From assembly GCA_913052165.1 (NCBI GenBank), contig CAJXEC010000004.1, forward strand, positions 1 to 59,261: DNA of 59,261 nucleotides, in the 5' to 3' direction. Both the position numbers and the translations under genes were made by a program. Each line of letters opens with the position of its first letter. Positions within the stretch are counted from its first letter, which is position 1. This document shows, piece by piece, positions 24,980 through 53,300 of this stretch. The notes below the pieces were generated by a model. It was given only the letters and a program-made list of their open reading frames with translations. It searched no databases and had not been told where the DNA came from. The stretch is from an uncultured Rhodospirillaceae bacterium. Its GTDB lineage: Bacteria; Pseudomonadota; Alphaproteobacteria; MPNO01; UBA2964.

Positions 24980-25202
24980 TTACCCCCCTAACAGCCTGCT
25001 CTGAGTCAAGACTTTATTTCTACTGCTGGGACGATAATTGACCGTAAATCACTGTTTGTAAACAAAGAGATCTCCCTAGCTTATTAATACGTTTTTTTTA
25101 ACATTGCCAGCGGCCCAATAAGTTGCAAATCTGTTGGTTTGTGTTTGAATGTGGCAGCTGTTAATTAAGTAGCGATTTTAATAGTAAAAAGGGGAGGACC
25201 TT

Positions 25203-28654: not shown

Positions 28655-28657
28655 CGA

Positions 28658-29581: not shown

Positions 29582-29596
29582 AAGAATCGGGTTCAA

Positions 29597-29623
29597 TAAA
29601 TAAAAGGGGCGCCGAGGCGCCCC
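29597..29623 (-). terminator. Intra-operon stem-loop/terminator after the binding-protein gene
   Basis: Minus strand GGGGCGC-CTCG-GCGCCCC-TTTTATTT. Confidence 0.7.
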
Positions 29624-29645
29624 CAATCAAATTAGCAATTCAACG

Positions 29646-30845
29646 TCACCAAGATTTCTTCATCTTACATTTTTTCGCATAGACATCTTGATGATTCTCA
29701 TAGACTTTTTGAACGATCTTCGTAGTCCAGTTCCCGTTAGAGTCTTTAATCACTTCTCTGAGATAAAAGTCTTGGATTGGAAAATGATTATTTCCATAGG
29801 AGAAATCCCCCCTGACCGACGGATACGACGCTTTTCGCATCTGATCTCGCATTGCATCCATTTTCGAGAGATCTCCGCCAACCGCTTTTACCGCATCAGC
29901 AATCATCATTATTGAGTCATAGCTTTGCGCTCCGTAATGAGACGGGTAGGCATTGAACTTCGTTCTGTAATCCTCCACAAACTTTTTGTTAACTGGAGTA
30001 TCCAAATCTGGTGACCAAAACTGGGTGCTATAGGTTCCAAGAACATTTTGGAGTTTAGCTTGTTGAAGCTTGGGAAGGCTGAGAGAGTCAACACTGAAGA
30101 CCGAGTATAATGGCGTCTTGGTCATACCTGCTTGGGCATATTGACGGAAAAAGGCATTTGTTGCCCGACCTGGATAGAATATGAATACGCCCTCCGGATT
30201 AGCCGCCCTTGCCTTTGCAAGCTCCGCTGAAAAATCAAGTTGAGTTGGCCATTTAGTTAGGTCTTTCCCAAGCACTTTGCCCTTAAATGTGCGCTCTACA
30301 CCGGCGACCATGTCCCGACCCGCAGCATAATTCGGAGCAACAATATAGAGGCTTTTAACCCCCCTCTTATTTAATACCTCACCCAAGGCCATTGGCACCT
30401 GATCATTTTGCCAGGAGGTTGAAAAAATATTTTTGTGACAGAGCCGACCGGCTATTTTTGAAGTTCCCGCGTTGGAAACAATCAAAAATTTACCAGATTT
30501 TACAGCCGAGTTTCTCGACGCCAATAAAACATGTGACCAAATAAATCCGGACAAGAAATCGACTTTATCTTTATTGAGGAGCTTTTCAGTTTTCTGCTTA
30601 CCGACCTCAGGTTTGACTTGATCATCCTCAAACAAAACCTCGACAGGGATCCCGCCCATTTTTTTACCAAGGTGATCAAGCGCGATCTCCACCGATTGGC
30701 GCATATCTTTACCAATTACTCCCGCCCCTCCGGACAGGGTGGTAACAAACCCAATCTTAATTTTCTTCGCTTTCGCAGCGATCGCGTAAGGCGCTGTAAA
30801 ACACAACGCGAGCGCAGAAATACCGTAAACCAAAATCTTCTTCAT
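29646..30845 (-). CDS. ABC substrate-binding protein (Liv/aromatic-acid type)
   Basis: Signal peptide, IKIGFVTTLSG, EDDQVKPE, PNYAAGRD; start MKKIL after AAGGGAG. Confidence 0.88.
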   Translation of the reverse strand: MKKILVYGISALALCFTAPYAIAAKAKKIKIGFVTTLSGGAGVIGKDMRQSVEIALDHLGKKMGGIPVEVLFEDDQVKPEVGKQKTEKLLNKDKVDFLSGFIWSHVLLASRNSAVKSGKFLIVSNAGTSKIAGRLCHKNIFSTSWQNDQVPMALGEVLNKRGVKSLYIVAPNYAAGRDMVAGVERTFKGKVLGKDLTKWPTQLDFSAELAKARAANPEGVFIFYPGRATNAFFRQYAQAGMTKTPLYSVFSVDSLSLPKLQQAKLQNVLGTYSTQFWSPDLDTPVNKKFVEDYRTKFNAYPSHYGAQSYDSIMMIADAVKAVGGDLSKMDAMRDQMRKASYPSVRGDFSYGNNHFPIQDFYLREVIKDSNGNWTTKIVQKVYENHQDVYAKKCKMKKSW

Positions 30846-30983
30846 TTCTCTTTCTCCCTTTCGTCCAGCTAAGGGCACTCAGCTGGTTAAAATTTATCAC
30901 CCAATAATAGCTTAGTAGCCCAATCTGCCAACATTAAAAAAATTCTTCTTCGAATTCACACGCTGAAATTTTAAGTCACTCAG

Positions 30984-31784
30984 CTATACAGCTTCCTGGA
31001 TGACTTTCTTGACCCCCGCTTCATTTTCTTTTCCTTTGGAAGCCATCAATGTAATGAAATCATCGATAAACCATTGGCGCATTGCTATCTCGTAGTTAGG
31101 ACGAGCGCAAATTTTCTTAAACCAAGCCGCAACTCTGGGGCGCGTGTCAAAGAGCCAATCTTGTTTTAAATGCACAACTCTGGTGACATAGGGGGTTAGA
31201 GCAATATCGGCCAGGGAGTATGCATCCCCCGCAATCCATGGGTATCGGTGTAAATCGGCTTCCATTTCGTCCAGCATCTTCACGATGCGAGCGATCGCCG
31301 GTTTAAAAAAATTGGAGTCTACGCCTTCCAGCACGTTCTCGGTCATCCTCCGTCTTTTTTCTGGATTTACGTAACCGTCGAGTGTCTTTTGAAGTTCTTC
31401 GGAAGTTTTACCTTCCATGAATTGATATCTGAAAGCGATGCAGGCGCTAATTGTTGCGCTTGCAGCATGGAGCCCCTCATCTAGCTGCTTCACCCATCTT
31501 CTCATCAATGAGCGTTCATATGGGTCTGTAGACCTCAGCGCTGGTTCTGGAAACACATCATCCAGATATTCATCAATTACGGCTGATTCATAAATAATTT
31601 TTTCATCATGAATAATGGTCGGGACAACTCCATTTGGATTCAACTCGAGATACTCTGGTTTGTGCTGATCACGGGCGCGCAAGTTGAAATGATGGGAGTG
31701 AAAATCTTGTCCTTTCTCAGCCAAGGTGAGCCTCACTTTTTGAGAGCAAGTTGACATACCATTATGGTAGAGTTCTATCGCCAT
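30984..31784 (-). CDS. Glutathione S-transferase family protein
   Basis: STCSQKVR, LNPNGVVP, ESAVIDEYLDD, YSLADI. Confidence 0.9.
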   Translation of the reverse strand: MAIELYHNGMSTCSQKVRLTLAEKGQDFHSHHFNLRARDQHKPEYLELNPNGVVPTIIHDEKIIYESAVIDEYLDDVFPEPALRSTDPYERSLMRRWVKQLDEGLHAASATISACIAFRYQFMEGKTSEELQKTLDGYVNPEKRRRMTENVLEGVDSNFFKPAIARIVKMLDEMEADLHRYPWIAGDAYSLADIALTPYVTRVVHLKQDWLFDTRPRVAAWFKKICARPNYEIAMRQWFIDDFITLMASKGKENEAGVKKVIQEAV

Positions 31785-31851
31785 TACCCCTCACATATTT
31801 TTCCAAATCAAGTTAATAATTGCCGCTTCTACCGTCCACTCCTCACTCGCT

Positions 31852-32772
31852 TTAGCGCTTTCGAGCGGTCTTTTTTGCTTTTTTTGCCGCTGCTTTTTTA
31901 CCGGCAGATGTCTTTTGACCAGACGCACTCTTAACCCGAGCAGCGGCCTTCTTAAGATCCAATTGACCCAACCCTGGGCGATAGCTTTTTTCGTCTAAAA
32001 ACTGTCTTATACCCTCATCGCGACCCGGGATCGGATCAGTTGCTTTGCAAGCGACGCTCTTTGCGTTGAGGTAATCTGCAGCCTCAGGCTCATTCATCCG
32101 ACGTACGCTCCTAATTGCTTCCTTTGTGTATCGCATAGCATTCGGGCTTTTCGTCATTAATTTTTTAGCCAACTTTACTGTTTCAGAGCGTAGCTTGTTC
32201 GCTGGGACAGAATAATTAACTAGGCGAATTTTTTCAGCCGTCCTTCCATCAAACGGATCACCTGTAACCGCATAGTAAAGGGCGTCTCGATAGGAGAGTA
32301 CATCGGCAACGTTCCAGCTGACGATGCCGCCAGGAATAATTCCCCAATTTACCTCGGACAATCCGAACGTTGCATTATTTGCTGCAATCGCGAAATCACA
32401 AGCGCAAAGCTGCGTAAATGCACCGCCAAAACAAAAACCATTCACCGCCGCAATCGTAGGCTTAGGAAAATTCACAAGTTTGTGCCAACGCCATGAACTT
32501 GATGCGGCACGCGCTTTAGCGCGCGTCTTCGGGTTATCTTGGTTGGCCCTAAAATAAAGCGCAAGATCCTGACCAGCACTAAAAGCCTTCCCAGAACCGG
32601 TTAACACGAGCACCTTGACGTCATCATCATCTGCCAGGAGATCTAGGGCATCCGCGCACTCCATGTGTAGCTCAGGGCTCATTGCATTTCGTTTCTCAGG
32701 CCGATTTAAAATTAACCAACCAATACCCTGTCCTTTTTCGATCTTGATATTATTGAATTTATACTCTGACAT
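31852..32772 (-). CDS. p-Hydroxycinnamoyl-CoA hydratase/lyase (crotonase family)
   Basis: NRPEKRNAMSP, AGQDLALYFR, W.W.KL, CFGGAFT, GLSEVNWGIIPG, FLDEKSYRPGLG typical of HCHL/Ech; Lys/Ala-rich tail. Confidence 0.85.
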   Translation of the reverse strand: MSEYKFNNIKIEKGQGIGWLILNRPEKRNAMSPELHMECADALDLLADDDDVKVLVLTGSGKAFSAGQDLALYFRANQDNPKTRAKARAASSSWRWHKLVNFPKPTIAAVNGFCFGGAFTQLCACDFAIAANNATFGLSEVNWGIIPGGIVSWNVADVLSYRDALYYAVTGDPFDGRTAEKIRLVNYSVPANKLRSETVKLAKKLMTKSPNAMRYTKEAIRSVRRMNEPEAADYLNAKSVACKATDPIPGRDEGIRQFLDEKSYRPGLGQLDLKKAAARVKSASGQKTSAGKKAAAKKAKKTARKR

Positions 32773-32820
32773 TTTGCAGTTCCCCATTATCTCTTTTTAC
32801 AAAGTTATCAGGGGGTTTCG

Positions 32821-32851
32821 AAAACGAAAAGCCCGGCTCAAGGCCGGGCTT
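32821..32851 (-). terminator. Intrinsic terminator after the second dctM
   Basis: GCCCGGC/GCCGGGC stem with a T tract on the minus strand. Confidence 0.75.
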
Positions 32852-32871: not shown

Positions 32872-34188
32872 TCACCCCATAAGACTGGGTAAATAAAGGG
32901 CCAAACCGGGTGCAACGACAAGAATAATGATCAGGATCAGGTCACAGAACAGGAAGGGAATGGCTGCTGCTGCCACTTCAAACAATGTTGTTCCTCTGAC
33001 CATTCCCAGCATGATAAATAACAGCAAGCCGAAAGGCGGTGTTGTTGCACTCATCTCTAATGCCATCAGGACAATAAGTGAAAACCAAATTAAATCGTAG
33101 CCCAATGCCGCAGCTAACGGATAAAAAATTGGCACTGTAATCAACATCATAGAGACTTGATCCATAAACATTCCAAGCAGGATTAATACGAGGAACATTG
33201 CCGTCAAAATGACCAGAGGGGCCACTTCAAAGCTTGTTGCCCACGCTACTAACCCTCTGCCAGCACCTGATATAGATAATAATTGGCTGAACACCGTCGA
33301 GTTCATAAGAATAAAGAAAACCATTGCAGCAACCCGTATGGTTCCCTCAAGTGACTTCGCAATATTCTCAAAGCTCAGCATGCGACGCACACCTGCAAGG
33401 ATAAATACGCCCACCACACCAAAAGAGGCTGACTCAGAGGGCGTTGCCCATCCTAGAACTATGAACCCAATTACTAGGAAGACAACAAACCCCATTGGTA
33501 AAATATTGACACCAATCTGATAGAATTTCTGCCCCCAAGTGGTTGGCTCTACATCGTAAGATGGCGCTGATTCAGGATTGCGCCATAGTTGGAATGAAAT
33601 CATTGCTGCGTAGAGTGTCGCCAGAACAAAACCCGGGAGCAAGCCGGCAATTAAGAGCCGTCCAACATCGACATTCGCGATACTTGCCAGCAAAACGCCC
33701 AACGAGGATGGGGGGATAATCATGGCCAGGCCCCCAGTTCCAAGGATTGGCCCCATGGACATCTTTTTACTGTAACCACGCCGCGTCATCTCTGGAACAA
33801 GCAACGAACCCAGCATCGCGGTATTCGCCATCGTGGAACCTGTTAGCGTGGAGAAAAGCGAACCTCCAATTACTGTGAGAAAACACAACCGCCCTGGAAT
33901 CTTCCCAAGCAATGTATCCAACGCGTCAAAAACTTTGATTGCGAGCCCCGTATGAAAGAACATTGACCCCATAAGGATGAACATAGGAATCGGTGATAGA
34001 GTAAAGGTTGTTATCAAGTTTGTGGCATTGTCCGCGATCTGCGGCAGAACTGGCCAACCTCCAGAGAAAACAAAAATACCAACGATATTTGTCGCCATAA
34101 AGGTGAAAGCCACGGGTATACCAAGAGCCATGCCGGTGATAATGCAACCAAGTAGGAGGCCTCCTGCCTCATACCACTCCATACCCAT
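32872..34188 (-). CDS. dctM: TRAP transporter large permease
   Basis: GTGGLAMIIPPS, ATPSESA, TPPFGL; paralog of 23157-24470. Confidence 0.92.
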   Translation of the reverse strand: MGMEWYEAGGLLLGCIITGMALGIPVAFTFMATNIVGIFVFSGGWPVLPQIADNATNLITTFTLSPIPMFILMGSMFFHTGLAIKVFDALDTLLGKIPGRLCFLTVIGGSLFSTLTGSTMANTAMLGSLLVPEMTRRGYSKKMSMGPILGTGGLAMIIPPSSLGVLLASIANVDVGRLLIAGLLPGFVLATLYAAMISFQLWRNPESAPSYDVEPTTWGQKFYQIGVNILPMGFVVFLVIGFIVLGWATPSESASFGVVGVFILAGVRRMLSFENIAKSLEGTIRVAAMVFFILMNSTVFSQLLSISGAGRGLVAWATSFEVAPLVILTAMFLVLILLGMFMDQVSMMLITVPIFYPLAAALGYDLIWFSLIVLMALEMSATTPPFGLLLFIMLGMVRGTTLFEVAAAAIPFLFCDLILIIILVVAPGLALYLPSLMG

Positions 34189-34190
34189 CG

Positions 34191-34706
34191 CTAGACCCCG
34201 TCCTTTACTTCACCCAAGTCATACGAGTAGTAGGACCGCAATCCCGCAAGATACATGCAGAATTCTAAACCCACCAATCCAAAGCATATCGGTAATGGAA
34301 GAAATTGAGACCAATAGGGCATATCCACACCCCGCACATCAAGCTCGCCCCCGATCCAATAATCGACGAATATCCCCCAACACAGATAGGCGGAGAGAAA
34401 AGCCATACATGCGCACAACAAGTAAACGCATTTAGCAAGAGGTTGTCTGACAGAATTAGGCAGAGCAGTTACCAGAGCCTCAATTACCACATGACCCCGC
34501 TCCCTGACCAACCATGGGGCGGCCAGCATCGTCATGTATAAAAGAGCGTATTCCACAAATGTTGAGGTGAATAAGGGGGGGTTATTTCCAGATAACCTAA
34601 TTGTCACATCAACTGTAATTCCAATAAACATGCAGGGTATCAATGCGGCCGCAATCCACATCATCCATGTGGAAAGCCTTTCCAATGAAGAGTCCAAAGC
34701 GCTCAT
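34191..34706 (-). CDS. dctQ: TRAP transporter small permease
   Basis: 4 TM, GHVVIE; GGAGG SD. Confidence 0.88.
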   Translation of the reverse strand: MSALDSSLERLSTWMMWIAAALIPCMFIGITVDVTIRLSGNNPPLFTSTFVEYALLYMTMLAAPWLVRERGHVVIEALVTALPNSVRQPLAKCVYLLCACMAFLSAYLCWGIFVDYWIGGELDVRGVDMPYWSQFLPLPICFGLVGLEFCMYLAGLRSYYSYDLGEVKDGV

Positions 34707-34865: not shown

Positions 34866-35906
34866 TTATCGCTTTTCGTCCAGAGTTCGACCAGTATCAA
34901 CCTGACGATTTGGCTTCCCGTCGACGTACATAAGCTTTGCAAGCTCATCAGCGTACTTGGGTGACCGCTTCTTTAATTCTTTCCAGATCTCACCATGAGC
35001 AATAGAGAGATACTTCGCTGAACCTTTACCAAGTTTAATTGTTTTCATTGGAGACTTTGCGATAATTTTTTCTTCTGCTAAGCGCTCCTTTTCAACAAAT
35101 TTGACCGAGCTAGTTTCATACTCGATCGCAACTTTGTTCATTATATCTTTCTGTTTTTGTGTGAGGCTTTTCCAGACTGCCGGGTTAACAGTAATAACCT
35201 GGTTTGTCTGATAGAAATTCGGAAAAACCCGGTATTTTACGATGTTGTGGAAGCCCAAAGCCACTGCCGAGACGTCTGTAAACCCAAAACCATCGACGGT
35301 TCCTCTCTGAACAGCCGTGAAAATCTCGGAGGATTTTATATTAACGGTCGTCGCACCAAGCGCTCTGAAAAGAGGCCTGTAGGTACCAGTTGCGCGCATC
35401 TTGAAGCCCTTAAGATTTGGAACTCCATTCGCATCCATCGGCGGCTGCTTAGTCAAATACATGTAATAGGAAGTCATGTTTTCTCCCCAGCAAAGCAAGT
35501 GAGCCCCCGCTTTCTCCATGTAAATTTTCTGTAAGATTTCCCAGGCGCCATTTTTTCTCAGGACCTTGGGACCTTGGTTTGCAGCCAACAACGCGTAGCC
35601 TTCCGGAACTGTTCCGATGTAGTAAGCCGTTGGCGCAGAAAGAATATTGAATTGCCCACGCTTTAGAGCTGCTGCAGCTTTTCTCGGCGGCACAACTTCC
35701 TGTCCGCCAACGTAATTAACTTTGAGCTGTCCTTTACCTGCCTTGTTCAAGGCAGGAATAAAAACTTCTATCGCGCTTCGGGCCAAAACGTTGGTCCTTT
35801 GAAGCGCCGTAACCATTGTGAGATCCTTCGCTTGAAGCGCGCCCTGGGTCACACCGAGTGTGGCCGCGGCCGCAACCAAACTTAGGGTTGCCTTGTAAAA
35901 TTTCAT
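34866..35906 (-). CDS. dctP: TRAP substrate-binding protein
   Basis: Signal peptide, GGQEVVP, GFKMR (conserved Arg), EIFTAVQRGTVDG. Confidence 0.88.
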   Translation of the reverse strand: MKFYKATLSLVAAAATLGVTQGALQAKDLTMVTALQRTNVLARSAIEVFIPALNKAGKGQLKVNYVGGQEVVPPRKAAAALKRGQFNILSAPTAYYIGTVPEGYALLAANQGPKVLRKNGAWEILQKIYMEKAGAHLLCWGENMTSYYMYLTKQPPMDANGVPNLKGFKMRATGTYRPLFRALGATTVNIKSSEIFTAVQRGTVDGFGFTDVSAVALGFHNIVKYRVFPNFYQTNQVITVNPAVWKSLTQKQKDIMNKVAIEYETSSVKFVEKERLAEEKIIAKSPMKTIKLGKGSAKYLSIAHGEIWKELKKRSPKYADELAKLMYVDGKPNRQVDTGRTLDEKR

Positions 35907-36095: not shown

Positions 36096-37760
36096 CTACC
36101 AATGGTCTAAATCAGACCAACCGTCCTCGGTATCACGCACCGAGGTTTCTGGCACTAGACCTTTTTGTTGGCGCTGCAAAGTGCGTTGACCGTTTTCCAA
36201 GTAATCACCCTCGGCAGCACGTTTTGCCCCTTGATGCCAAACATCATTCCAATCACCCAAAGAATAGCCAAACCACGGTGGCATCGGCTTTACAGCAGGG
36301 AGGCCCAATTTGTTCCAGAGAGCCAAACCCTTTTCCATGTATTCTTGTGTAGGCAAAGCTACCGGCGGCATGGGGCTTTTCATTGTGGCGTCCATGAGGA
36401 GTGTCGAGTCTTCCTCTCCCGCATGCTCGCGCTTAGGCCCATGACCCTGTCCCCGATGTGCCAATGTTTGCACATCCTCACCAGGATTCATCCGATATGC
36501 CATTGCCCAGAGCATGGCGTCGGCATTATCTGGATCAATATCCTCATTTACCGCAATGCAAATTTTACTGCAGTCACCCTTAAAAAAGGCAGCTCCATAG
36601 AGGGCGCGCCAAATTTCGGTTTTAGGTGTATCTCGCTCAACAGTTAGAATCGTCACGCGAAGTAGGCCGGTAAGTGGCTCGTGGAGAGAGACTTTTTTGA
36701 CGCCTTTAACGCCCAAAGCATCTCTGAGATGCGTTAAAAATAAAGGTTCATAAGCCACTCTTTTTATTACGCTCGACTCTGAGGGAGCCGCTTGACTGAT
36801 GTAAGACGTCAAAATCGCATTTTTACGTCTGGTGATCGCCGTTATGCGCATTGGCATATTGAACTCTTCAAGAGCTACGTGGCCATGGCTCTCACCAAAC
36901 GGACCCTCTGGCTCCACCATCTCAGTGTCAACCAGACCTTCAATAACAAGTTCAGCTTCGGCTGGAACCATCAAATCGACAGTTCTGGCCTTCACAATAT
37001 TGATGGAAGCACCGGCCAAACCGCCGGCTATGGCCATTTCATCCATATCGAGCGGTAATTTCTGAGGCCCCATAAAAGCAACACACGGGGGACACCCAAG
37101 TATAATTGCGACGGGCATTTCTTTATCTCCCCTCTCGCGATGTTTTTTGTAGTGCTGGTAACCACCAGCACCTCCCACTCTTGTCGCCATTCGGACTACA
37201 AGACGATCGGCGGCTTTCAAACCCGCGCGATAAGTGCCCATATTTTGAATACCAGTCTCGGGATCCTTGGTCACAACATTGGTTGAGGTCAACGTTGGAG
37301 CGTTGTCAAAACCTGGGGTGGAGACAGGGATCGGCAAGGAGTCCAATCCTTTTCCGGCGCCAATTAAATCTTGGCCTTCAATGATGACCTCGTGGCAACG
37401 CGCCTCCGAAACTTCGGATGCGGGTATCGGATTAGCTATTGCTTGCTCCCATTTTCTGCCTATTTCTTCCACCGGCACACCCATGCCAATGCTATAAATA
37501 TCCTGATTGGCGGCAAGGGCTCCTACGACAATCGGGAGTTCATAAGACCTTCCCTTCGCATTTTGGATATTTCGGAATAAAAACGCCTTGCGCTCAGACT
37601 CCCTCAAGCCCCCAACGAATTGCCATCTCACCAGAGTGTGCATCTCTGAGTCCTTGTCCACTGGGTCATCCACAGTTACCAACAGGCCTGCTTTCTTTAG
37701 AGCTTCGATGTGCTCGTGAAGGTCGGGATAAGCACGATTGGGATCACTCATCATATCCAT
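36096..37760 (-). CDS. UbiD family (prFMN-dependent) decarboxylase
   Basis: TKDPETGIQNMGTYR, VPAEAELVIEG, EGPFGESHG, EDIDP...LWAMAYR, DAT. Confidence 0.9.
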   Translation of the reverse strand: MDMMSDPNRAYPDLHEHIEALKKAGLLVTVDDPVDKDSEMHTLVRWQFVGGLRESERKAFLFRNIQNAKGRSYELPIVVGALAANQDIYSIGMGVPVEEIGRKWEQAIANPIPASEVSEARCHEVIIEGQDLIGAGKGLDSLPIPVSTPGFDNAPTLTSTNVVTKDPETGIQNMGTYRAGLKAADRLVVRMATRVGGAGGYQHYKKHRERGDKEMPVAIILGCPPCVAFMGPQKLPLDMDEMAIAGGLAGASINIVKARTVDLMVPAEAELVIEGLVDTEMVEPEGPFGESHGHVALEEFNMPMRITAITRRKNAILTSYISQAAPSESSVIKRVAYEPLFLTHLRDALGVKGVKKVSLHEPLTGLLRVTILTVERDTPKTEIWRALYGAAFFKGDCSKICIAVNEDIDPDNADAMLWAMAYRMNPGEDVQTLAHRGQGHGPKREHAGEEDSTLLMDATMKSPMPPVALPTQEYMEKGLALWNKLGLPAVKPMPPWFGYSLGDWNDVWHQGAKRAAEGDYLENGQRTLQRQQKGLVPETSVRDTEDGWSDLDHW

Positions 37761-37806
37761 CTCATATTGCTTTCATTGATGCGGAGTTATGTCACAGAGG
37801 TCTGTA

Positions 37807-37835
37807 TTGACAACCCCCACCGCCATTCTTAGGGT
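37807..37835 (+). promoter_or_regulatory. Putative sigma70 promoter of the Mo-hydroxylase operon
   Basis: TTGACA-17 bp-TAGGGT. Confidence 0.4.
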
Positions 37836-37883
37836 CCGGGCGTATAATAGCATGATAACCCTTATCTTTACTTAGAGAATGTC

Positions 37884-38765
37884 ATGAAAGCAGCTTCATT
37901 TGATTATATTCGAGCCAAGTCTATCGATGAGGTTTGTTCAGCTCTCAATCAAGGAGATGGTGAGGCACAGATTATTGCCGGGGGCCAAACGTTAATTCCC
38001 CTTATGGCTATGCGCATGTCCCGACCTCAAACATTAGTCGATATCAATGACATCGAAGAGCTCCGTGGAATAGAAGTTGCAGAAAAAGTGGCCATGATCA
38101 AAGCCGGAACAAGACAAGCAGATGTCCTAAGCTCAATCGAGATCCGCAACAATCTGCCAATATTGTCAGAAGCCCTTGGGCACGTGGGTCATACCCAAAC
38201 TCGGAATCGGGGAACAATTGGCGGCAGTCTAGTGGCAGCTGATCCCTCCTCCGAGATCTGTCTAATTGCGCAACTGCTTGATGCCACAATGATCGCAAAA
38301 AGCACAGCCGGAACGCGGTCTATTCCCGCGAATCAGTTCTTCGACTCAGCCATGGTGACCAGTTTGAAAGACGGGGAGTGCCTCATGGAAATTGATTTTC
38401 CAATTTGGAATCAAAAGCGTACTGGTTTTGGATTTCATGAAACAAGCATTAGAGATAGTGATTACGCTCTGGCCGCGGCGTCCGCCCAAATTGCCATCGG
38501 TGGTAACAACAAGTGTGAGCGCGTCCACTTGGCGGTAGGAGGCGCGACTCCGAGCCCTCTGCGTCTCAATGAGGTCGAGACAGCACTTATAGGGTCGGTC
38601 CTTGATGATAGCGTAATTGATGATGCGGTCTCGTTGATTCCGAACTTACTGGAACCTCAATCAGATGTGCACGCAAGTGCGGAATATAGGCGCCGTGTAA
38701 CATGTGTTTTAGCGGCACGTGCGATTCGAGATGCCCGTGACCGGGCACAAGGTAAATTTTCATGA
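37884..38765 (+). CDS. Xanthine dehydrogenase family FAD-binding subunit (CoxM-like)
   Basis: AGGQTLIP, TRNRGTIGGS, DVHASAEYRR. Confidence 0.92.
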   Translation: MKAASFDYIRAKSIDEVCSALNQGDGEAQIIAGGQTLIPLMAMRMSRPQTLVDINDIEELRGIEVAEKVAMIKAGTRQADVLSSIEIRNNLPILSEALGHVGHTQTRNRGTIGGSLVAADPSSEICLIAQLLDATMIAKSTAGTRSIPANQFFDSAMVTSLKDGECLMEIDFPIWNQKRTGFGFHETSIRDSDYALAAASAQIAIGGNNKCERVHLAVGGATPSPLRLNEVETALIGSVLDDSVIDDAVSLIPNLLEPQSDVHASAEYRRRVTCVLAARAIRDARDRAQGKFS

Positions 38766-39247
38766 GTAAAAATTCGGTACACATAACTGTAAATGGCACA
38801 GCCTACAAAAGAGAAATTGAGCCGCGTTTAACACTGGTAGATTTTCTGCGTGATGAACTCGACCTCACTGGGACCCATGTAGGCTGCGAGCATGGAGTCT
38901 GCGGTGCATGCTCAGTAATCATGGATGGGCGTCCGGTACGATCTTGCCTGATATATGCCGTAATGGCGGATGGACACGATTTCGTCACCGTGGAAGGTCT
39001 GGGGAGTAAAGACGGTTCGCTGTCCCCTATCCAAGATGCATTTTGGGAAAATCACGCAATGCAATGCGGCTATTGCACCCCAGGCATGCTAATAGCATGT
39101 CATCATCTTTTAGAGGAAAATCCAGACCCCACAGAAGAAGAAATTCGGGAAGCTATTGGTGGTAATCTCTGTCGTTGCACCGGCTATCAGCAGATCGTCG
39201 AAGCGGTGAAAATAGCCGCCCAAAAGATTCACGGGGTAAATCTATGA
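38762..39247 (+). CDS. Xanthine dehydrogenase family 2Fe-2S subunit (CoxS-like)
   Basis: GCEHGVCGAC, QCGYCTPG, GNLCRCTGY. Confidence 0.95.
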   Translation: MSKNSVHITVNGTAYKREIEPRLTLVDFLRDELDLTGTHVGCEHGVCGACSVIMDGRPVRSCLIYAVMADGHDFVTVEGLGSKDGSLSPIQDAFWENHAMQCGYCTPGMLIACHHLLEENPDPTEEEIREAIGGNLCRCTGYQQIVEAVKIAAQKIHGVNL

Positions 39248-41625
39248 GTGCTCCTCAGCAATTCAAGTATATCACAAAAAAACGTAGGGTAAGAGAGGAT
39301 CGACGTTTCGTGACGGGAAAAGGTCGTTTTGCGGCAGACTTTAAATTCCCAGGTATGCTTCATATTGCCATGGTTGCGTCCCCGTTCGCATGCGCAAAAA
39401 TTAACTCCATTGATTCTTCTCCAGCGCTAGAGCTTCCCGGAGTGCATTACGTTCTAACTGGGGTGGAACTAGCCGCCAATATTAATCCTCTTTTATCAGG
39501 CCTCGACCTCCCCGATGTAAAGCGATTGCCTCTAGCAAATGGCCGCGCTCGATACGCAGGGGAATGGGTTGCAGCCGTTGTTGCAGATACCCGCCATATT
39601 GCCGAGGACGCAGCTGAGCTTGTGGCAATCGACTACGAGATGCTTGATTTTGTAATTGATCCCGAAGAGGCGCTTCAGGACACCGCTCCTGTCGTCCACC
39701 CAGAAAACGGAAGTAACATATTTTTCGATAAAACCTGGACATGGGGGGATGTGGAAGGTGACTTTGCAAAGGCTGAACATACCCTTGCCTTGCAGGCAAA
39801 ATGGAGCCGTTCCTCGACCGTCCCGATCGAGACCTTTGCCGTTACAGCAAGCTGGGATGAAGGTAGAGAGATGTTGGATATTTGGGCATCAATCCAGATG
39901 CCCAAATACCCAGAGCAAATTGCGCGCGCGCTTCAGATACCTGTGACATCAGTAAATGTTCACTTTGATGTCGATGTCGGGGGTTCCTATGGCCTTAAAA
40001 GAGGCATCAGGCAAACGGTTATAGTTGCATACCTGACAAAAAAGCTCCAGCGCCCGGTTAGGTTTATTGAGGATAGGCTGGAAAACATGGCGGGTGGAGA
40101 AATGCATGGTCCTGACCGAGTCTTTGACATGGAGGTCGCCTACGACGAACAAGGCATAATGGAGTCCCTGAAAATCACTGCCACGGATGATTGTGGCTGC
40201 TACCCAGGTCGGGCGCCCCTCCAACTCGGCAAACCGGTCAGCGCTATTGTTGGACCCTACCGGATCAAGAGCGCCCGATACCATGCCAGATCGGTCTCTA
40301 CAAACAAAACCAGTCAGGAAGCAGTCCGAGGTTTTGGCCAAGCACCAACCAACTTTGCTATAGAAACCGTTGTTGACCGGATCGCATCAACTTTAAATAT
40401 CTCTCGCGAAGAAGTTCGTCGCCGTAATCTGATCAGATCTGAGGAATTTCCGTGGCGAATTCCATCCGGCTCAGAGTATGACAGTGGCGATTACCACGCT
40501 GTACTTGATAAGCTTATGAGGGCTGCAGATTGGGATAAGCTAATCGAAAAACGGAACTCATTCAGAAACGATGGTAAATTAGCCGGTCTAGGTCTATCCA
40601 CATGCCTCGAGCCCTCGGGAGGCAATTCTTCTTTTGAACCCCTGTTCAACCCGAAAAACGATACCACGACTTGGATGGAGTCATGCCTAATCAAAGTCGA
40701 TATGCTGGGTGGAATTTGTGCGATGATGGGCACCTCTTCATCGGGCCAGGGACATGAGACACTTCTGGCAGTTTCCATTGCTGAGGTTTTGGAGCGTGAT
40801 CCAGACAGTATTAGAGCCATTCATTCAGAGTCTGTTGGAGCTCTCCCATCAAACAGTCCTGTCGGAAGCAGAATGGCGATTATGTTAGGCGGTGCAGCAG
40901 CCGGAGCCGCAAAGAAAATTAAAAACCAGGTAATTGCTATCGCTGCACATAATTTTCAGTTGCCCGAGGATCGATTGGTTTATGAAGGTGGAGACGTTTA
41001 CGTAAAAGGAGACACCGAACGTTGCCTAAGATGGGAACAGTTGGTGGATATCGCGCATAGGCAGTATCACAACATGCCCATTGGCTCAGAGCCAGGACTT
41101 CAAGCCCAACATACCTGGGAGGTTCCCACCGGAGGAGCTATGCCTAAAGAAGATGGGACAGTTCAAATGTACCCCTGCTACGCTTTCGAGGCGCATATAC
41201 CCCTGATCACCATTGACCCAGGAACAGGCCAAGTTCAAATCCATGACTATTACATTGGTCACGATTGTGGGACTGTTATTAACCCCGATATCGTGAGGGG
41301 GATGACATTCGGTGGGATTGCACATGGTATAGGAGCTGCGCTTTACGAGAAATTTCAATACGACGAGAGTGGGCAGCTCCAAGCAGGAACTTTTATGGAT
41401 TACCTATTGCCCTCTGCCCATGAAATCCCAGCTGTCGAGATGATCAAACATCATACTCCTTCACCACTTACAGAATTCGGTCAGAAGGGTTCGGGAGAAT
41501 CTGGATATCTCGGCGCTCCTGCAGCTATTGCCAGCGCCGTAAATGATGCACTCGCACCACTTGGCAAATCAATCGCAACCTTGCCCATGCGCGTCCGGGA
41601 CCTTGAAGAATTGTTGAACAGCTAG
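39244..41625 (+). CDS. Xanthine dehydrogenase family molybdopterin-binding subunit
   Basis: REDRRFVTGKG, VGGSYG, TNKT..AVRGFG, GQGHET, DCGTVINP, KGSGE; start ATG 39244 overlaps the small-subunit stop. Confidence 0.92.
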   Translation: MSAPQQFKYITKKRRVREDRRFVTGKGRFAADFKFPGMLHIAMVASPFACAKINSIDSSPALELPGVHYVLTGVELAANINPLLSGLDLPDVKRLPLANGRARYAGEWVAAVVADTRHIAEDAAELVAIDYEMLDFVIDPEEALQDTAPVVHPENGSNIFFDKTWTWGDVEGDFAKAEHTLALQAKWSRSSTVPIETFAVTASWDEGREMLDIWASIQMPKYPEQIARALQIPVTSVNVHFDVDVGGSYGLKRGIRQTVIVAYLTKKLQRPVRFIEDRLENMAGGEMHGPDRVFDMEVAYDEQGIMESLKITATDDCGCYPGRAPLQLGKPVSAIVGPYRIKSARYHARSVSTNKTSQEAVRGFGQAPTNFAIETVVDRIASTLNISREEVRRRNLIRSEEFPWRIPSGSEYDSGDYHAVLDKLMRAADWDKLIEKRNSFRNDGKLAGLGLSTCLEPSGGNSSFEPLFNPKNDTTTWMESCLIKVDMLGGICAMMGTSSSGQGHETLLAVSIAEVLERDPDSIRAIHSESVGALPSNSPVGSRMAIMLGGAAAGAAKKIKNQVIAIAAHNFQLPEDRLVYEGGDVYVKGDTERCLRWEQLVDIAHRQYHNMPIGSEPGLQAQHTWEVPTGGAMPKEDGTVQMYPCYAFEAHIPLITIDPGTGQVQIHDYYIGHDCGTVINPDIVRGMTFGGIAHGIGAALYEKFQYDESGQLQAGTFMDYLLPSAHEIPAVEMIKHHTPSPLTEFGQKGSGESGYLGAPAAIASAVNDALAPLGKSIATLPMRVRDLEELLNS

Positions 41626-41650
41626 AAATACATCGGAATTGGAGATTTTT

Positions 41651-42376
41651 ATGAGTAATCACCTTCTTCTCAATCAGAATGGAAGAGTTTTTGAAGCGAC
41701 CTTCAACCGACCTGACGATAACGCGTGTTCTGACTCTATGGCGGCAGAGTTCTCTGCCAAGCTTGCCTCAGCACATGAAACATCTGACATGGTCCTGCTC
41801 AGAAGCTGTGGGCCTGACTTTTGTACTGGGAGGGCAAGAAATCCTGATGCAGGTCCTCCGCACCCAGAAGCATATACGCGACGCGATGAATATGACTCAA
41901 TATTCTACTGTTACAATGCGATAAAAAATTGCAAAATCCCGGTCGTCGCTGTGATTGAAGGGCGCTGCATGGGGTTCGGCACCGCAGTTGCCGCAGTCTG
42001 TGATGTCACGATAGCAGCAAAGTCTGCAAAGTTTAACATTCCGGAAATGGATCACAACGTGATGCCGACGATGGTGATGTCAGCAATCTACGATCGTATG
42101 AACAGAAATGCTATTTTGTGGATGACTTATACAGCAAAATTTATTTCTGCCGAACAGGCTATGGCCTACGGCATCATTTCAACAGTTGCAGAAGACAAAG
42201 ATCTCGAGGCCGAGGTAAAGGAATTTTGTGATATTTTACTCAGTCGAAAGCGTCCCGCTATTTTGGGCTTAAAAGAATATCTTACTTCAGCGCCTCGAAT
42301 GGACGATCAAGGGGCGCTGGATTACGCAAGAGCCATCCATTCAATGGTTAATACGGCAGCCGCAATGAAAAAATAA
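41651..42376 (+). CDS. Enoyl-CoA hydratase/isomerase (crotonase) family protein
   Basis: FNRP, DFCTG, IPVVAVIEGRCMGFG, CDVTIA, IPE. Confidence 0.85.
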   Translation: MSNHLLLNQNGRVFEATFNRPDDNACSDSMAAEFSAKLASAHETSDMVLLRSCGPDFCTGRARNPDAGPPHPEAYTRRDEYDSIFYCYNAIKNCKIPVVAVIEGRCMGFGTAVAAVCDVTIAAKSAKFNIPEMDHNVMPTMVMSAIYDRMNRNAILWMTYTAKFISAEQAMAYGIISTVAEDKDLEAEVKEFCDILLSRKRPAILGLKEYLTSAPRMDDQGALDYARAIHSMVNTAAAMKK

Positions 42377-42631
42377 TGATGGGCTCTGATTATCCCTTCG
42401 CCTCTGGGATTTAAACCTCAAGAATATATTGAGAACTCGGAACTAAAAAGTAATGACAAGAAACATAGCCTCAGGAAGGTTGCTCATGAGGTTTTTCACT
42501 CAGAAACCTGCGGCTGTTAAAAAAAATATTAAAATATATGAAAGTTCTCCCTTTGTTTGTTGCTGTCATAAACCTTTAAAGCGGGTCCTTGCTCAAAAAG
42601 ATCGTTGAGACAGCGTAATTAGGAAAACACA

Positions 42632-43129
42632 CTATTTATTATTTGGGACAAAACACGCAGGACAGAGTCCGGATACTTCGATTGTTTGCTTCTTGACATC
42701 AAAACCCAATTTAGCAGCCCTATCGCGGATCTCTTCAGTCAGCCCATCATCGTCTAATTCCGCTGTGAGTCCGCAACTGCTACATATTAAAAATTGGCCT
42801 CCGTGCTCCTTATCTGGCGCCGCACATCCAACAAATGCATTTAGTGACTCAATTCGGTGGATCAGCCCATTGGATAACAGAAAATCTAGCGCACGATAGA
42901 CCGTCGTCGGCGCTGCGCCCGCGCCCTGCTTATTCAGCATATCCAGAATTTCATAAGCACCTAGGGGTTTGTGGCTGGACCACAATAACTCGAGCACCCG
43001 CCTCCGTTGAGCCGTCAGTTTTAAACCGAGTCTCTTGCACAAATTTTCTGCCGTATTCATCGCTTCATCGAAACACTGACGATGATCATGCGGATCTTCG
43101 GGAAAACGTGCGATAATTTGTTTAGACAA
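42632..43129 (-). CDS. zur: Fur family regulator, Zur type
   Basis: HDHRQC, LTAQRRRVL, PTTVYRALDFL, HRIESLNAFVGC, CSSC, CPAC; start TTG 43129 uncertain. Confidence 0.82.
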   Translation of the reverse strand: MSKQIIARFPEDPHDHRQCFDEAMNTAENLCKRLGLKLTAQRRRVLELLWSSHKPLGAYEILDMLNKQGAGAAPTTVYRALDFLLSNGLIHRIESLNAFVGCAAPDKEHGGQFLICSSCGLTAELDDDGLTEEIRDRAAKLGFDVKKQTIEVSGLCPACFVPNNK

Positions 43130-43359
43130 CAGAGCGGCTCCGCTTGCGGTGGATCTTCTTTGCAGATGTACTATGGAACAGTCCGTCCATGTCATCAAAC
43201 TGAAATATTTTAGAGTTTAAATGTAAAAGAGCCCTCATAACTGAATCTCAGATTGAGTAAGATCGTCAGATTTTTCGATACCAATGTAACAACATCATAA
43301 CCCAACCAATAGTCTTATCATTGAGGCCATACGCCTAAAATAATCACTGGATAAATGTC

Positions 43360-45927: not shown

Positions 45928-46779
45928 ATGATCGAAATTAGGCCGCTTAGGGAGGCTATTGGGGCTGAGGTCAGAGGCGTTGCTCTAGGTGAAAGCATTT
46001 CTCAAAAAGACGCCATGATCTTAAGATCCGCTTTCGTTGAATACGTTCTCCTTATTTTTCGTGGTATGGAGCTTGATGACCTTGAACTGAAGACAAGTGC
46101 CGATTGGCTTGGTTCGATTGGTAAAATACATATGCCTTTGGGACGTCGGCGAGATGAAGACCTTAATATTCAGCTGGTATCCAATATCAGGAATGAATTT
46201 AACGAAGAAATAGGGTCTTTTGGTGATAGTGATATGTGGTTTCACCACGATAACTCGTTTTCACAAGCGCCCGATAAAGCTACCTGGCTATATTCGGTTG
46301 AATTGCCAAAAACTGGTGGAAATACGCTTTTTAATAATTGTTATTTATCGTGGGAGGCTCTGCCCCATAAATTAAAAACCAAGATTGCCGGGAAGAAGGT
46401 TTTACAAGTCTACGACTACACCGTGAAACAAGAACCAGATTTATCAGATCTCGTCCGGATACCTCATTGTTGGCAGCCAGCGGTTCTCATTCATCCAGAG
46501 ACAAAACGCCCGGCCCTGTATGTTAACAGGTTAATGAGTGCGGCAATTCAGGGCATGGACAAATCTGATGCAAGCGATCTCTTGCAAGACCTTTTTTATT
46601 ACATAGAACGGATTGATTACGAACATACATGGTCCTTGGGCGACTATTTAATTTGGGACAATCGTTGTTCCGCTCACGCCAGAACCTCGTTTCCGCCGGA
46701 CCAAAGACGACTCCTAAAAAGGGGCAAAGTCGCCGGAGAAATCTTGAAACCCTTCGGCTACGACGGAAAACAGAGTTAA
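45928..46779 (+). CDS. TauD/TfdA family Fe(II)/2-oxoglutarate dioxygenase
   Basis: IGAEVRG, FHHDNS (HxD), GGNTLF, WDNRCSAHAR. Confidence 0.9.
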   Translation: MIEIRPLREAIGAEVRGVALGESISQKDAMILRSAFVEYVLLIFRGMELDDLELKTSADWLGSIGKIHMPLGRRRDEDLNIQLVSNIRNEFNEEIGSFGDSDMWFHHDNSFSQAPDKATWLYSVELPKTGGNTLFNNCYLSWEALPHKLKTKIAGKKVLQVYDYTVKQEPDLSDLVRIPHCWQPAVLIHPETKRPALYVNRLMSAAIQGMDKSDASDLLQDLFYYIERIDYEHTWSLGDYLIWDNRCSAHARTSFPPDQRRLLKRGKVAGEILKPFGYDGKQS

Positions 46780-47955: not shown

Positions 47956-49017
47956 TCAGGCGGGCTCAAATACATTTAATGGTGCCGTATGTTCTACGCC
48001 AGGCATTTCGATACCCGCGAAATTCTCTCGGAAACCCGGTACAAGTGACCTTCCATTCTCATCAACCACCCATAAACGCATAAGATGCCGTTTTTTTCCT
48101 GGCTCCTCAAAATCTTGAAATGCTGTCCTTGTGTGAACAGTTACATGGCTGTGCAAAACCTGAATATCACCCTTTTGAAAGTGAGTAGGAAAAGAGAATT
48201 TATTGGCCAGTTTCTGGAAATACGGAAAAGCCTCTCTTTGGTTTTTGGTTGCAGGGGGAACTCCAGGAAGATCCAAAGCCTTCAGCAGATGATTTCCTGC
48301 GCCCCGCCCCGAAAAAAAACCATCTTTAAAAGAAAATACGGGCAGTTTGTAAAAAGGATCTTCACCTTCTGAGATTTCACCATGTTTAGTTTGGTAAAAG
48401 TCACCGATCAAAGCTTCTGCAAGCTCAGGCCGCGTTCGGAGCATCTCGTTATAGATGGTTACAGTGCTGGCAATCAGGCTCTCTCCACCCGATTTTGCCG
48501 GCTGAATACACATCAACCAAACATTATCACATTGATCAGAGTGGTAGCTCATCTGTGCTGCAGTCTGATAACCACGAACTTTAGGATCACTATAATCACC
48601 CCCGAAATCTTTGACGTGACCAAGCATATGCCCTTTAGCGTTTTGGGAGACACAACGGCCAAATCGCGTGCCCAATCCACAGAATGCCATGGCAGCAGAC
48701 TGTGGGCCAATGTCTTCAATAGGAAGCCCTCTTACTAGAAAAAAACCGCGCCCGTGAAGTAATTCGTCTCTTAAAATAGATAACCTTTGATCAAATACTG
48801 GTAAAATGAAGTTTTCACGAGTGATATCCAAAACAGTTTTGCCATCTTCCACTAAGGAATCAACTGCCCCGAGAATTTCCAATATTTCAGTATCAGAAAG
48901 TGTATAGATCCAGTCATTAGTCCCGATCATATCCTCTGGGAACCAACCTGCAGGATCAATTACATGCATCATCGGTTCAGAGTGTTCGCGTCCTCGGGGC
49001 GCAGGCTTAAAAGTCAT
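47956..49017 (-). CDS. TauD/TfdA family dioxygenase (clavaminate synthase-like)
   Basis: GRGFFLVRGLP, YHSDQCD, GGES, HTRTAF, RHLMRLW. Confidence 0.88.
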   Translation of the reverse strand: MTFKPAPRGREHSEPMMHVIDPAGWFPEDMIGTNDWIYTLSDTEILEILGAVDSLVEDGKTVLDITRENFILPVFDQRLSILRDELLHGRGFFLVRGLPIEDIGPQSAAMAFCGLGTRFGRCVSQNAKGHMLGHVKDFGGDYSDPKVRGYQTAAQMSYHSDQCDNVWLMCIQPAKSGGESLIASTVTIYNEMLRTRPELAEALIGDFYQTKHGEISEGEDPFYKLPVFSFKDGFFSGRGAGNHLLKALDLPGVPPATKNQREAFPYFQKLANKFSFPTHFQKGDIQVLHSHVTVHTRTAFQDFEEPGKKRHLMRLWVVDENGRSLVPGFRENFAGIEMPGVEHTAPLNVFEPA

Positions 49018-53274: not shown

Positions 53275-53300
53275 TATTCGGCCTTAAGAAGGATTTGATT

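Follow-up and report, generated by a model that had tools for sequence, protein, structure and literature searches.

Neither UbiD-family decarboxylases nor molybdenum hydroxylases need O2 as a reactant when they attack stable rings. To our knowledge, only two pathways that combine a UbiD decarboxylase with a molybdenum (Mo) hydroxylase have been worked out so far, namely the hmf furan pathway and, in 2025, the lumazine pathway. Here we describe a locus that carries both enzymes on contig CAJXEC010000004.1 of an uncultured Rhodospirillaceae bacterium. The window that we analysed is this entire contig of 59,261 bp (C4), and the assembly to which it belongs (G000; 2.48 Mb in 141 contigs, 86.6% complete) has marine Rhodospirillaceae and Rhodospirillales metagenome-assembled genomes as its closest relatives. 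A gene for a long-form UbiD decarboxylase lies head-to-head in the window with an operon for a Mo hydroxylase composed of flavin adenine dinucleotide (FAD)-binding, 2Fe-2S (FeS) and molybdopterin-binding (Mo) subunits. On balance, we favour the reading that this locus is a copy of a catabolic module that occurs widely, is biochemically uncharacterised and serves the breakdown of a carboxylated acid, most likely a heteroaromatic one. The conserved core of the module is a UbiD of ∼550 aa, the FAD/2Fe-2S/Mo hydroxylase and, in most genomes, an amidohydrolase-2 (AH2), of which the window retains a 3′ remnant.

In the hmf pathway, HmfFG acts as the furandicarboxylic acid (FDCA) decarboxylase with UbiX, HmfABC is a furoyl-coenzyme A (CoA) dehydrogenase, HmfD is a ligase and HmfE is a 2-oxoglutaroyl-CoA hydrolase (PMC8091172). 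The lumazine pathway is encoded by cluster I of Cupriavidus sp. LA-1, which degrades lumazine and pterin to xanthine (Doi, Maeda & Takaya, 2025; PMC12391406). That report describes in cluster I a dehydrogenase (LuDH; Mo/FeS/FAD), the isomerase DHLI, which is a twin amidohydrolase-2 assisted by a GTPase, a UbiD-type xanthine-8-carboxylate decarboxylase (XCDC), UbiX, a pterin deaminase and nucleobase permeases; all oxygen in this pathway comes from water, and alphaproteobacterial lumazine clusters carry a cytosine-deaminase-like gene (PMC12391406).

For comparison with hmf, we used the cluster on pENH92 of C. necator NH9 (L085/L095), which was assigned to hmf by its gene order and content (PMC8091172). 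This cluster comprises two ordered sets of genes, one for a UbiD, UbiX, TctC and a GMC oxidoreductase and one for Mo (1012 aa), FAD and FeS subunits, a ligase and a crotonase. For the lumazine pathway, a cluster on S. meliloti pA (L094; NZ_CP141213.1, 475900-486600) was chosen by gene content in place of LA-1 sequences. It encodes twin PF04909 proteins with 72% mutual identity, a 457-aa UbiD, UbiX, a CobW-type GTPase, Mo/FeS/FAD subunits and a GntR regulator. Three other candidates were rejected, namely the UbiD of a P. kondratievae plasmid, which belongs to an anaerobic-ubiquinone UbiD/UbiX/U32 locus; an AH2 match on the C. metallidurans megaplasmid, with no UbiD or Mo gene nearby; and a match on an A. 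pusense plasmid, which is a frameshifted UbiD with UbiX and no lumazine cluster.

The UbiD decarboxylase and the Mo hydroxylase

Genes in the window were identified by open reading frame (ORF) calling and by Pfam and NCBIfam profile scans. The window has 63 ORFs with a length of 150 aa or more, and 57 of them were scanned for further gene functions; the six omitted are antisense ORFs over scanned genes. The UbiD gene (36096..37760, minus strand; 554 aa) is separated by a 123-bp spacer (37761..37883), whose sequence was inspected, from the plus-strand genes for the FAD-binding medium subunit (37884..38765, 293 aa; FAD_binding_5 and CO_deh_flav_C), the 2Fe-2S small subunit (38762..39247, 161 aa; Fer2 and Fer2_2) and the molybdopterin-binding large subunit (39244..41625, 793 aa; Ald_Xan_dh_C, MoCoBD_1 and MoCoBD_2). 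The three genes of the hydroxylase are translationally coupled by 4-nt overlaps, with the FAD stop over the FeS start and the FeS stop over the Mo start. The ORF of the Mo subunit opens with a TTG at 39175, and its likely start is the ATG at 39244 that overlaps the FeS stop. The original prediction of a 554-aa UbiD gene placed head-to-head, at 123 bp, with a coupled FAD/2Fe-2S/Mo operon was therefore borne out, with all genes at their predicted coordinates. A sigma-70 consensus scan flagged no promoter in the divergent spacer, the scanned region overall containing fewer sites than shuffled sequence, and no regulator gene adjoins the spacer in the window. Downstream of the Mo gene follows that for an atypical crotonase-fold protein (ECH2; 41651..42376, plus strand, 241 aa; ECH_1), whose ORF opens with a TTG at 41639 and whose likely start is the ATG at 41651. 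The FAD, FeS, Mo and crotonase genes are partly covered by contigs of one metatranscriptome library, which hints only weakly at expression, given that such libraries can contain DNA.

The UbiD protein scored above the cut-offs for UbiD_N, UbiD and UbiD_C (PF20695, PF01977 and PF20696), and thus has the full architecture of the UbiD superfamily; its score on TIGR00148 was 198.7 bits, under the cut-off of 244.85. The N..R, DE and ExxxxE motifs of this superfamily provide the residues that bind the metal and prenylated flavin mononucleotide, as well as the catalytic acid-base residues, as described for Fdc1 and UbiD. In an alignment with HmfF (6h6x/6h6v), 7pda and E. coli UbiD, QNMGTYR, DMDEMAIAGG and EPEGPFGESHGH of the window protein fall in the equivalent columns, and the enzyme looks active in that the N/R, DE and ExxxxE motifs are all kept. 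Residues 70-461 align with these three proteins, while residues 462-554 form a C-terminal extension without counterpart in solved UbiDs. The original prediction had described a longer UbiD with an RWQFVGG N-terminal segment. This motif is indeed present (LVRWQFVGG at residues 43-51), but the extra length is mostly C-terminal.

To place the protein among its relatives, we built a quick maximum-likelihood tree of 41 UbiDs, in which all 26 from G000 were joined by ten orthologues, two paralogues from rhizobia, and references for HmfF, the XCDC type and the ubiquinone type. The window UbiD fell in a clade of long UbiDs (Shimodaira-Hasegawa-like approximate likelihood ratio test [SH-aLRT] support 100) along with paralogues from contigs C16, C20 and C24, two from C35, and the rhizobial paralogues that are 55% identical to it, and both HmfF and the XCDC-type UbiD branched outside. 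The C-terminal extension is conserved in the long clade, with a mean fraction of identical residues of 0.58 in 18 sequences vs 0.71 for the core. No characterised member of this clade was found among solved structures or in the literature searched. The best solved match of the window UbiD by phmmer was HmfF (125 bits for the PDB sequence, 132 bits for the NH9 protein).

The Mo subunit has the features of the xanthine oxidoreductase (XOR) family, i.e., the hammerhead and two molybdenum cofactor-binding domains, the active-site Gln (IQMP) and Glu (GSGESG), and FAD and 2Fe-2S partners. The loop quoted in the original prediction as TNKT..AVRGFG was found in the subunit as STNKTSQEAVRGFGQ. The loop TNKTSQEAVRGFG lacks the cysteine of carbon monoxide dehydrogenase (CODH), since QEAVRGFGQ stands in place of the VAYRCSFR with the Cu-binding Cys in form I CoxL, and the scores of the subunit on CODH models (422-456 bits) lie well under their cut-offs (950-991). 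By phmmer, HmfA was the best match among the proteins compared (438 bits), followed by Qor (373), CoxL (364), CutL (356) and Kdh (353), and scores against the aldehyde oxidoreductases were 113 bits for MOP, 90 for PaoC and 221 for the Sulfolobus-type 4zoh. The enzyme resembles Qor, Kdh and form I/II CoxL in domain architecture, in its catalytic Gln and Glu and in being built from three subunits, but differs from them in sequence (353-373 bits, roughly one third identity as judged by eye) and in its loop. Because this loop is VRGFG, and not AYRG(V/A)G or VAYRCSFR, the Mo enzyme is neither a CO dehydrogenase nor a Qor or Kdh orthologue. The best NCBIfam scores of the FAD and FeS subunits were on glyceraldehyde dehydrogenase models, below cut-off. 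With its catalytic residues kept and a hydroxylase-type loop, the Mo enzyme, like UbiD, looks active.

By phmmer score, HmfF and HmfA are thus the nearest characterised-type relatives among those compared, and we asked whether the module could be the pathway for furfural, hydroxymethylfurfural and FDCA itself. Both systems pair a UbiD decarboxylase with a three-subunit Mo hydroxylase and a crotonase-fold protein that would act on a carboxylated ring; the TNKT..VRGFG loop is common to HmfA and the window Mo subunit, and the crotonase gene follows the Mo genes as hmfE follows hmfABCD. However, identities to the NH9 proteins were low, at 30% for UbiD, 34% for Mo, 33% for FAD and 27% over 161 residues for the crotonase against HmfE, with a higher value only for FeS (52%). 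The window UbiD is ∼55-100 aa longer and carries the conserved C-terminal extension, whereas the Mo subunit of 793 aa is without the ∼220-aa C-terminal extension of HmfA (∼1000 aa). The gene order is FAD-FeS-Mo instead of Mo-FAD-FeS, there is no adjacent UbiX, and, as predicted, the window has no CoA ligase: no AMP-binding ligase or CoA-transferase was found among the scanned ORFs. In addition, HmfE keeps a first catalytic Glu that the window crotonase is without, and relatives of the module add an ACMSD-like decarboxylase.

Much closer hmf-type orthologues lie elsewhere in G000. HmfA is 52% identical to proteins encoded on C6 and C3, HmfB (50%) and HmfC (62%) have orthologues on C6, and orthologues of HmfD (44%) and HmfE (47%) are encoded side by side on C26 (C6:20008-24250, C3:53096-55984 and C26:23213-25595). 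A clear HmfF orthologue was not found in G000, the best match being 35% identical. The genome therefore probably encodes a furoyl-CoA-type lower pathway that is separate from the window module, and the module itself is a paralogous system. Together with the position of HmfF outside the long-UbiD clade, this refutes the module as an hmf orthologue, as had been predicted, and leaves almost no room for its being the furan pathway. None of the proteins fell inside a characterised clade among those that could be compared here.

A conserved core and the loss of its amidohydrolase in the window

At least 8000 UbiD candidates passed an E-value of 0.001, and the best 120 of these, from Alpha- and Betaproteobacteria, were 72-97% identical to the window protein. 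We surveyed the gene neighbourhoods of the best 80 of 401 confirmed UbiD-relative loci, 49 of which have at least 8 kb of flanking sequence on both sides (fully flanked loci), and counted an orthologue of a window gene when it lay within 8 kb of the UbiD orthologue. A Mo large subunit, with 57-93% identity to the query, was found near UbiD in 36 of the 49 fully flanked loci, an FAD subunit in 36 and an FeS subunit in 37. The pairing of UbiD and Mo at this frequency exceeds chance, and the two enzymes form a conserved functional pair, in line with the original prediction. In an even sample of 200 other Alphaproteobacteria, UbiD matches with at least 50% identity occurred in two genomes (with up to seven candidates scored per genome, matches of any kind were seen in 90 of 201 genomes, a tally that includes the unpublished genome G040, from which nothing is concluded here).

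The original prediction had proposed a scheme of decarboxylation, hydroxylation and hydrolysis, with the crotonase as its third enzyme. The survey did not support this part. Crotonase orthologues were found in only 14 of the 80 loci (11 of the 49 fully flanked), all of them in marine Rhodospirillales (L001-L015), which places the crotonase outside the conserved core. The third conserved enzyme is instead an ACMSD-like AH2, present near UbiD in 35 of the 49 fully flanked loci, together with Mo in 33 and without Mo in two. Many Rhizobiales and Stellaceae loci have the order FAD-FeS-Mo-AH2-UbiD on one strand, and the marine relatives have FAD-FeS-Mo-crotonase-AH2. Azorhizobium doebereinerae UFLA1-100 (L080) and Propylenella binzhouense L72 (L070) are cultivable bacteria with the orthologous FAD-FeS-Mo-AH2-UbiD set. 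Orthologues of the window's DctP with at least 50% identity, belonging to an importer of the tripartite ATP-independent periplasmic (TRAP) type, lie beside UbiD in 15 of the 80 loci (11 fully flanked), again all among the marine loci L001-L015. The TRAP importer behind UbiD and the crotonase between Mo and AH2 are therefore additions of the marine Rhodospirillales. Outside the marine clade, the importers are TctC-type or NMT1/SsuA-type ATP-binding cassette (ABC) systems. The 55% identical rhizobial UbiD paralogues (L083, L087) were set aside as a different module, with two Mo enzymes, CoxG, GntR, TctC/TctA and a thiamine pyrophosphate (TPP) enzyme, and without AH2.

The AH2 of the relatives (∼330 aa) is closest to aminocarboxymuconate semialdehyde (ACMS) decarboxylase, ACMSD (E = 2e-30), followed by IDCase and LigW. 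In the marine relative L001, the metal ligands of ACMSD (HxH, His, His and Asp) are retained, as are both Arg residues, which we take to be the residues that bind the two carboxylates of ACMS. The similarity to the three decarboxylases is nevertheless remote, and the context differs, being that of a Mo hydroxylase and not of kynurenine, lignin or thymidine-salvage metabolism. Against the plasmid collection, AH2 gave only matches of up to 32% identity.

The window has lost this gene. What remains is a 153-bp remnant (42367..42519, plus strand) that corresponds to nt 835-989 of the 990-nt AH2 gene of L001 with 85% identity, and a 2-nt gap breaks its reading frame. About 855 bp of the gene are gone, and the stop codon of the crotonase gene is kept. 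Contigs from four sequencing runs of four studies (X1, X2, X4 and X15, one of them an RNA library) cross the junction at 42366/42367; X1 may be the source sample. As these contigs span the junction without reported joints, the deletion is not an assembly artefact. The identity of the remnant lies within the 84-94% range of the intact neighbouring genes compared with L001, and we therefore make no claim of accelerated decay. Accordingly, the operon does not simply end in a crotonase gene, as had been predicted: the crotonase gene follows the Mo gene, but the AH2 remnant comes after it. The marine locus L008, with 81% UbiD identity, is also without AH2, and the module therefore persists without this enzyme in part of the marine lineage. 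In relatives L003-L011, the zinc-uptake genes Zur, ZnuA, ZnuB and a probable ZnuC lie directly beside the gene for the zinc-dependent AH2; in the window, Zur (42632-43198) alone remains next to the remnant.

The crotonase was indeed atypical, as predicted. Its fold is supported by a score of 92 bits on ECH_1 and by Foldseek matches, and no NCBIfam model scored above cut-off. Enoyl-CoA hydratases have two catalytic Glu residues, located in GGGxE and PE motifs in the rat enzyme and the PROSITE signature. In the window protein, the first position is Ala (GFGTAV), while HmfE has GVGFEL; the second Glu (IPE) is kept and is invariant in the aligned sequences. Ala occupied the first position in all ten aligned sequences of the orthogroup, the window protein included, and Gly in a paralogue on C20, and the protein thus has one of the two Glu residues of an enoyl-CoA hydratase. 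The AlphaFold2 model was of moderate confidence (predicted local distance difference test score of 70) and matched only generic crotonases and isomerases in a Foldseek search of the PDB, so that it does not discriminate between crotonase functions.

The combination of an XOR-family Mo enzyme, an amidohydrolase-2 and a UbiD in one cluster is also that of lumazine cluster I, the sole published N-heteroaromatic pathway of this kind that we found (PMC12391406). The module could therefore be a diverged member of the pathway from lumazine and pterin to xanthine, and a cog0402-type deaminase gene does follow AH2 in six of the 80 loci, though none is present in the window. Sequence comparison with L094 argued against such membership. 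The window UbiD was 24.6% identical to that of L094 (96 bits) and belongs to a different clade, the Mo subunit was 27% identical (217 bits), and the AH2 of the relatives gave no tblastn match to L094 at an E-value of 1e-3. A single AH2 stands here in place of the twin isomerase. Neither a CobW-type GTPase nor UbiX was found in any of the 80 loci or in the window, there is no nucleobase permease among the scanned window ORFs, and the importers are of carboxylate types. No deaminase match lay near a UbiD match in the 200 evenly drawn Alphaproteobacteria. Judged against L094, the module resembles the lumazine pathway in its design but is not a member, and we regard descent from cluster I as very improbable. 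The claim that the pathway is undescribed holds only with a reservation: 2025 saw the publication of a lumazine route built from these three classes of enzyme, but on the L094 comparison that route is not orthologous.

Elsewhere in G000, the UbiD on C85 (C85:3508-9332) groups as sister to the XCDC-type UbiD of S. meliloti (38% identity, SH-aLRT 96), is encoded ∼2 kb from a Mo large subunit gene, and may be the nearest lumazine-type decarboxylase of this genome.

A proposed route and its likely substrate

The pairing seen in the window recurs within the genome. G000 encodes 26 UbiDs, 30 Mo large subunits, eight FAD_binding_5 proteins (two of them partial), seven Fer2_2 proteins, one of which is the window 2Fe-2S subunit, and a single UbiX (C106:5628-6173; above cut-off on TIGR00421). 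With just eight FAD and seven FeS genes for 30 Mo subunits, about 23 of the latter are without FAD and FeS partners of their own. A Mo large subunit gene is found within 7 kb of ten of the 26 UbiD genes, compared with a mean of 3.7 under random placement (P = 0.003). A module on C20 (4438-11999, L089) combines a UbiD 56% identical to that of the window with a DUF35/ChsH2-like OB protein, a thiolase-like protein, a Mo subunit, a family-III CoA-transferase and a crotonase. This crotonase, 31% identical to the window protein, is the sole paralogue with its unusual motifs, DFC(T/K)GR and PEM. On C24 (393-8815, L090), a Mo subunit and a 59% identical UbiD are encoded with aconitase large and small subunits, a gene of the phosphoenolpyruvate (PEP)-mutase/isocitrate-lyase family, an alpha/beta hydrolase and a cupin. 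The two UbiDs of C35 have TetR, TctA, isochorismatases and a hydantoinase as neighbours.

In the route that we propose, the TRAP system would import an anionic, carboxylated ring compound, and the Mo enzyme would add an oxygen atom derived from water beside the heteroatom, possibly on a CoA thioester by analogy with HmfABC, its nearest relative. UbiD, which is encoded away from UbiX in the window and in all 80 loci, would strip a carboxyl group with cofactor supplied by the single UbiX of the genome. In the relatives, AH2 may remove a second carboxyl group, and in the marine lineage the crotonase would handle a downstream, probably CoA-bound, intermediate. With AH2 reduced to a remnant, the route in this genome would skip that step or borrow an enzyme from elsewhere.

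Several lines of evidence lead us to infer this substrate class and chemistry. HmfF and HmfA act on heteroaromatic carboxylates, and by analogy with these nearest characterised-type relatives the substrate is most likely a heteroaromatic mono- or dicarboxylate. The importers found beside the module, i.e., TRAP, TctC and NMT1/SsuA-type ABC systems, are all of anion or N-heterocycle types. An N-heterocycle is probably involved, as suggested by neighbouring genes for RutB-like isochorismatase hydrolases, a RutD-like alpha/beta hydrolase, AtzE-like amidases, a cupin and a cog0402-type deaminase. That the motif-sharing crotonase on C20 is encoded beside a family-III CoA-transferase and a Mo subunit is consistent with CoA chemistry.

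A number of observations weigh against this reading, or against parts of it. No substrate can be read from the sequence itself. The neighbours that hint at an N-heterocycle are sporadic, occurring in four to eight loci each, as do genes for an FAD monooxygenase, a TPP enzyme and malate synthase A. Thirteen of the 49 fully flanked loci are without an orthologous Mo enzyme, and five of these (L017, L020, L021, L027 and L054) carry a different Mo or XdhB-type set. CoA activation finds no partner near the module: besides the lack of a ligase or CoA-transferase among the window ORFs, none was seen among the annotated neighbour families of the 15 marine loci, and none of the six family-III CoA-transferases of G000 is encoded on C4. 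The loss of AH2 in this genome and in L008 shows that the scheme of three enzymes is not obligatory.

The AH2 of the relatives also bears on whether the substrate is a ring at all. ACMSD acts on an open-chain product of ring cleavage and not on an aromatic acid, and UbiD enzymes such as Fdc1 use acrylic-type acids. The main rival to a heteroaromatic substrate is thus a non-aromatic, open-chain unsaturated di- or tricarboxylate, resembling ACMS, muconate or aconitate, which UbiD and the ACMSD-like enzyme would decarboxylate while the Mo enzyme oxidised an aldehyde or semialdehyde. Such a substrate would fit the retention of both Arg residues in AH2, the best scores of the FAD and FeS subunits on glyceraldehyde dehydrogenase models, and the aconitase subunits and PEP-mutase/isocitrate-lyase-family gene next to the UbiD on C24; these C24 neighbours hint that some long UbiDs act on non-aromatic unsaturated acids or polycarboxylates. 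However, phmmer scores place the Mo subunit much nearer to HmfA, Qor, CoxL and Kdh (353-438 bits) than to the aldehyde oxidoreductases, the nearest UbiD relatives use heteroaromatic acids, and AH2 has proved dispensable in two marine genomes in which the remaining module is intact. We therefore consider an open-chain substrate unlikely, and retain a heteroaromatic acid as the preferred assignment.

A bolder proposal, which we put forward as a tentative and rather doubtful extension of this assignment, is that the set of long UbiD, Mo hydroxylase and ACMSD-like enzyme constitutes a major oxygenase-free route in marine and soil proteobacteria, by which abundant and so far unrecognised heteroaromatic polycarboxylates would be decarboxylated and hydroxylated with water. 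The 26 UbiDs, 30 Mo subunits and one UbiX of G000 would then mark a specialism on carboxyl-rich dissolved organic matter, and the long-UbiD clade would be a new subfamily that has co-evolved with Mo hydroxylases. Were this true, candidate substrates would include carboxylates of pyridine, pyrrole, pyrazine or pteridine that originate in cofactors and in organic matter altered by photo-oxidation. In the literature searched, nothing relevant turned up on expansions of UbiD and CoxL and marine dissolved organic matter, or on a link of UbiD enzymes to pyridine-dicarboxylates, picolinate, quinolinate or dipicolinate. Since the orthogroup is strongly conserved (at least 72% identical across two proteobacterial classes among the best hits), tightly linked to Mo and unassigned in its substrate, one well-chosen biochemical screen could name a new pathway. 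Knowing the substrates would reveal on which carboxylated ring compounds in marine dissolved organic matter these bacteria feed, and biocatalytic carboxylation is a further reason for interest in UbiD (de)carboxylases, whose reaction is reversible.

The TRAP importer and flanking genes

On the strand of UbiD and directly behind it, the window encodes a complete TRAP system in one run, in agreement with the original prediction. It consists of the solute-binding protein DctP (34866..35906, minus strand, 346 aa; PF03480), the small membrane subunit DctQ (34191..34706, minus strand; PF04290) and the large membrane subunit DctM (32872..34188, minus strand; PF06808, and above cut-off on TIGR00786). 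The best solved relative of DctP was 4mnc/4mni (E = 3e-34). A terminator-like hairpin of 9-10 pairs, seven of them G-C, followed by a T-rich tail (32829..32851, minus strand), lies past the DctM stop and ahead of the next gene of the same strand, and was the strongest of 18 terminator-like sites in a scan for which shuffled sequences gave an expectation of 14.3. Given the position of this strong hairpin after the DctM stop, it is likely that the UbiD-TRAP transcription unit ends here.

The gene beyond the hairpin (31852-32787, minus strand) encodes a protein like hydroxycinnamoyl-CoA hydratase-lyase (HCHL), with a score of 351.7 bits vs the NCBIfam cut-off of 276. Rhodopseudomonas palustris takes up hydroxycinnamates via TRAP and ABC systems of the kind found here, and in the window the HCHL-like gene lies on the UbiD strand just past TRAP and is followed by genes for a glutathione S-transferase (GST) and a branched-chain-type ABC importer. 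One could thus envisage a route in which hydroxycinnamates are imported by TRAP or ABC, the HCHL-like enzyme frees an aromatic aldehyde, the Mo enzyme oxidises it and UbiD decarboxylates the resulting hydroxybenzoate. Several observations make this quite improbable. The strong hairpin separates DctM from the HCHL-like gene, relatives have opposite-strand genes between TRAP and HCHL, several loci are without HCHL, and soil Alpha- and Betaproteobacteria that lack HCHL retain the core of UbiD, Mo and AH2. Moreover, the Mo enzyme is not of the aldehyde-oxidoreductase type, the UbiD scored only 151 bits on the VdcC model (cut-off 650), and no feruloyl-CoA synthetase is encoded in the window. Taken on its own, the gene set at 26255-32787 (minus strand), comprising the HCHL-like hydratase/lyase, GST and the five genes of the ABC importer, with no CoA ligase nearby, recalls hydroxycinnamate uptake and side-chain cleavage.

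A second TRAP system lies next to this set, at 23157-26189, with a DctM 65% identical to that behind UbiD, a DctQ and a divergent DctP. The window also encodes TauD/TfdA-family dioxygenases at 45928-46779, 47956-49017 and 53295-54182. This family is expanded genome-wide, and a tblastn search with the copy at 45928-46779 gave 27 matches in the genome at E-values of up to 1e-15, itself included.

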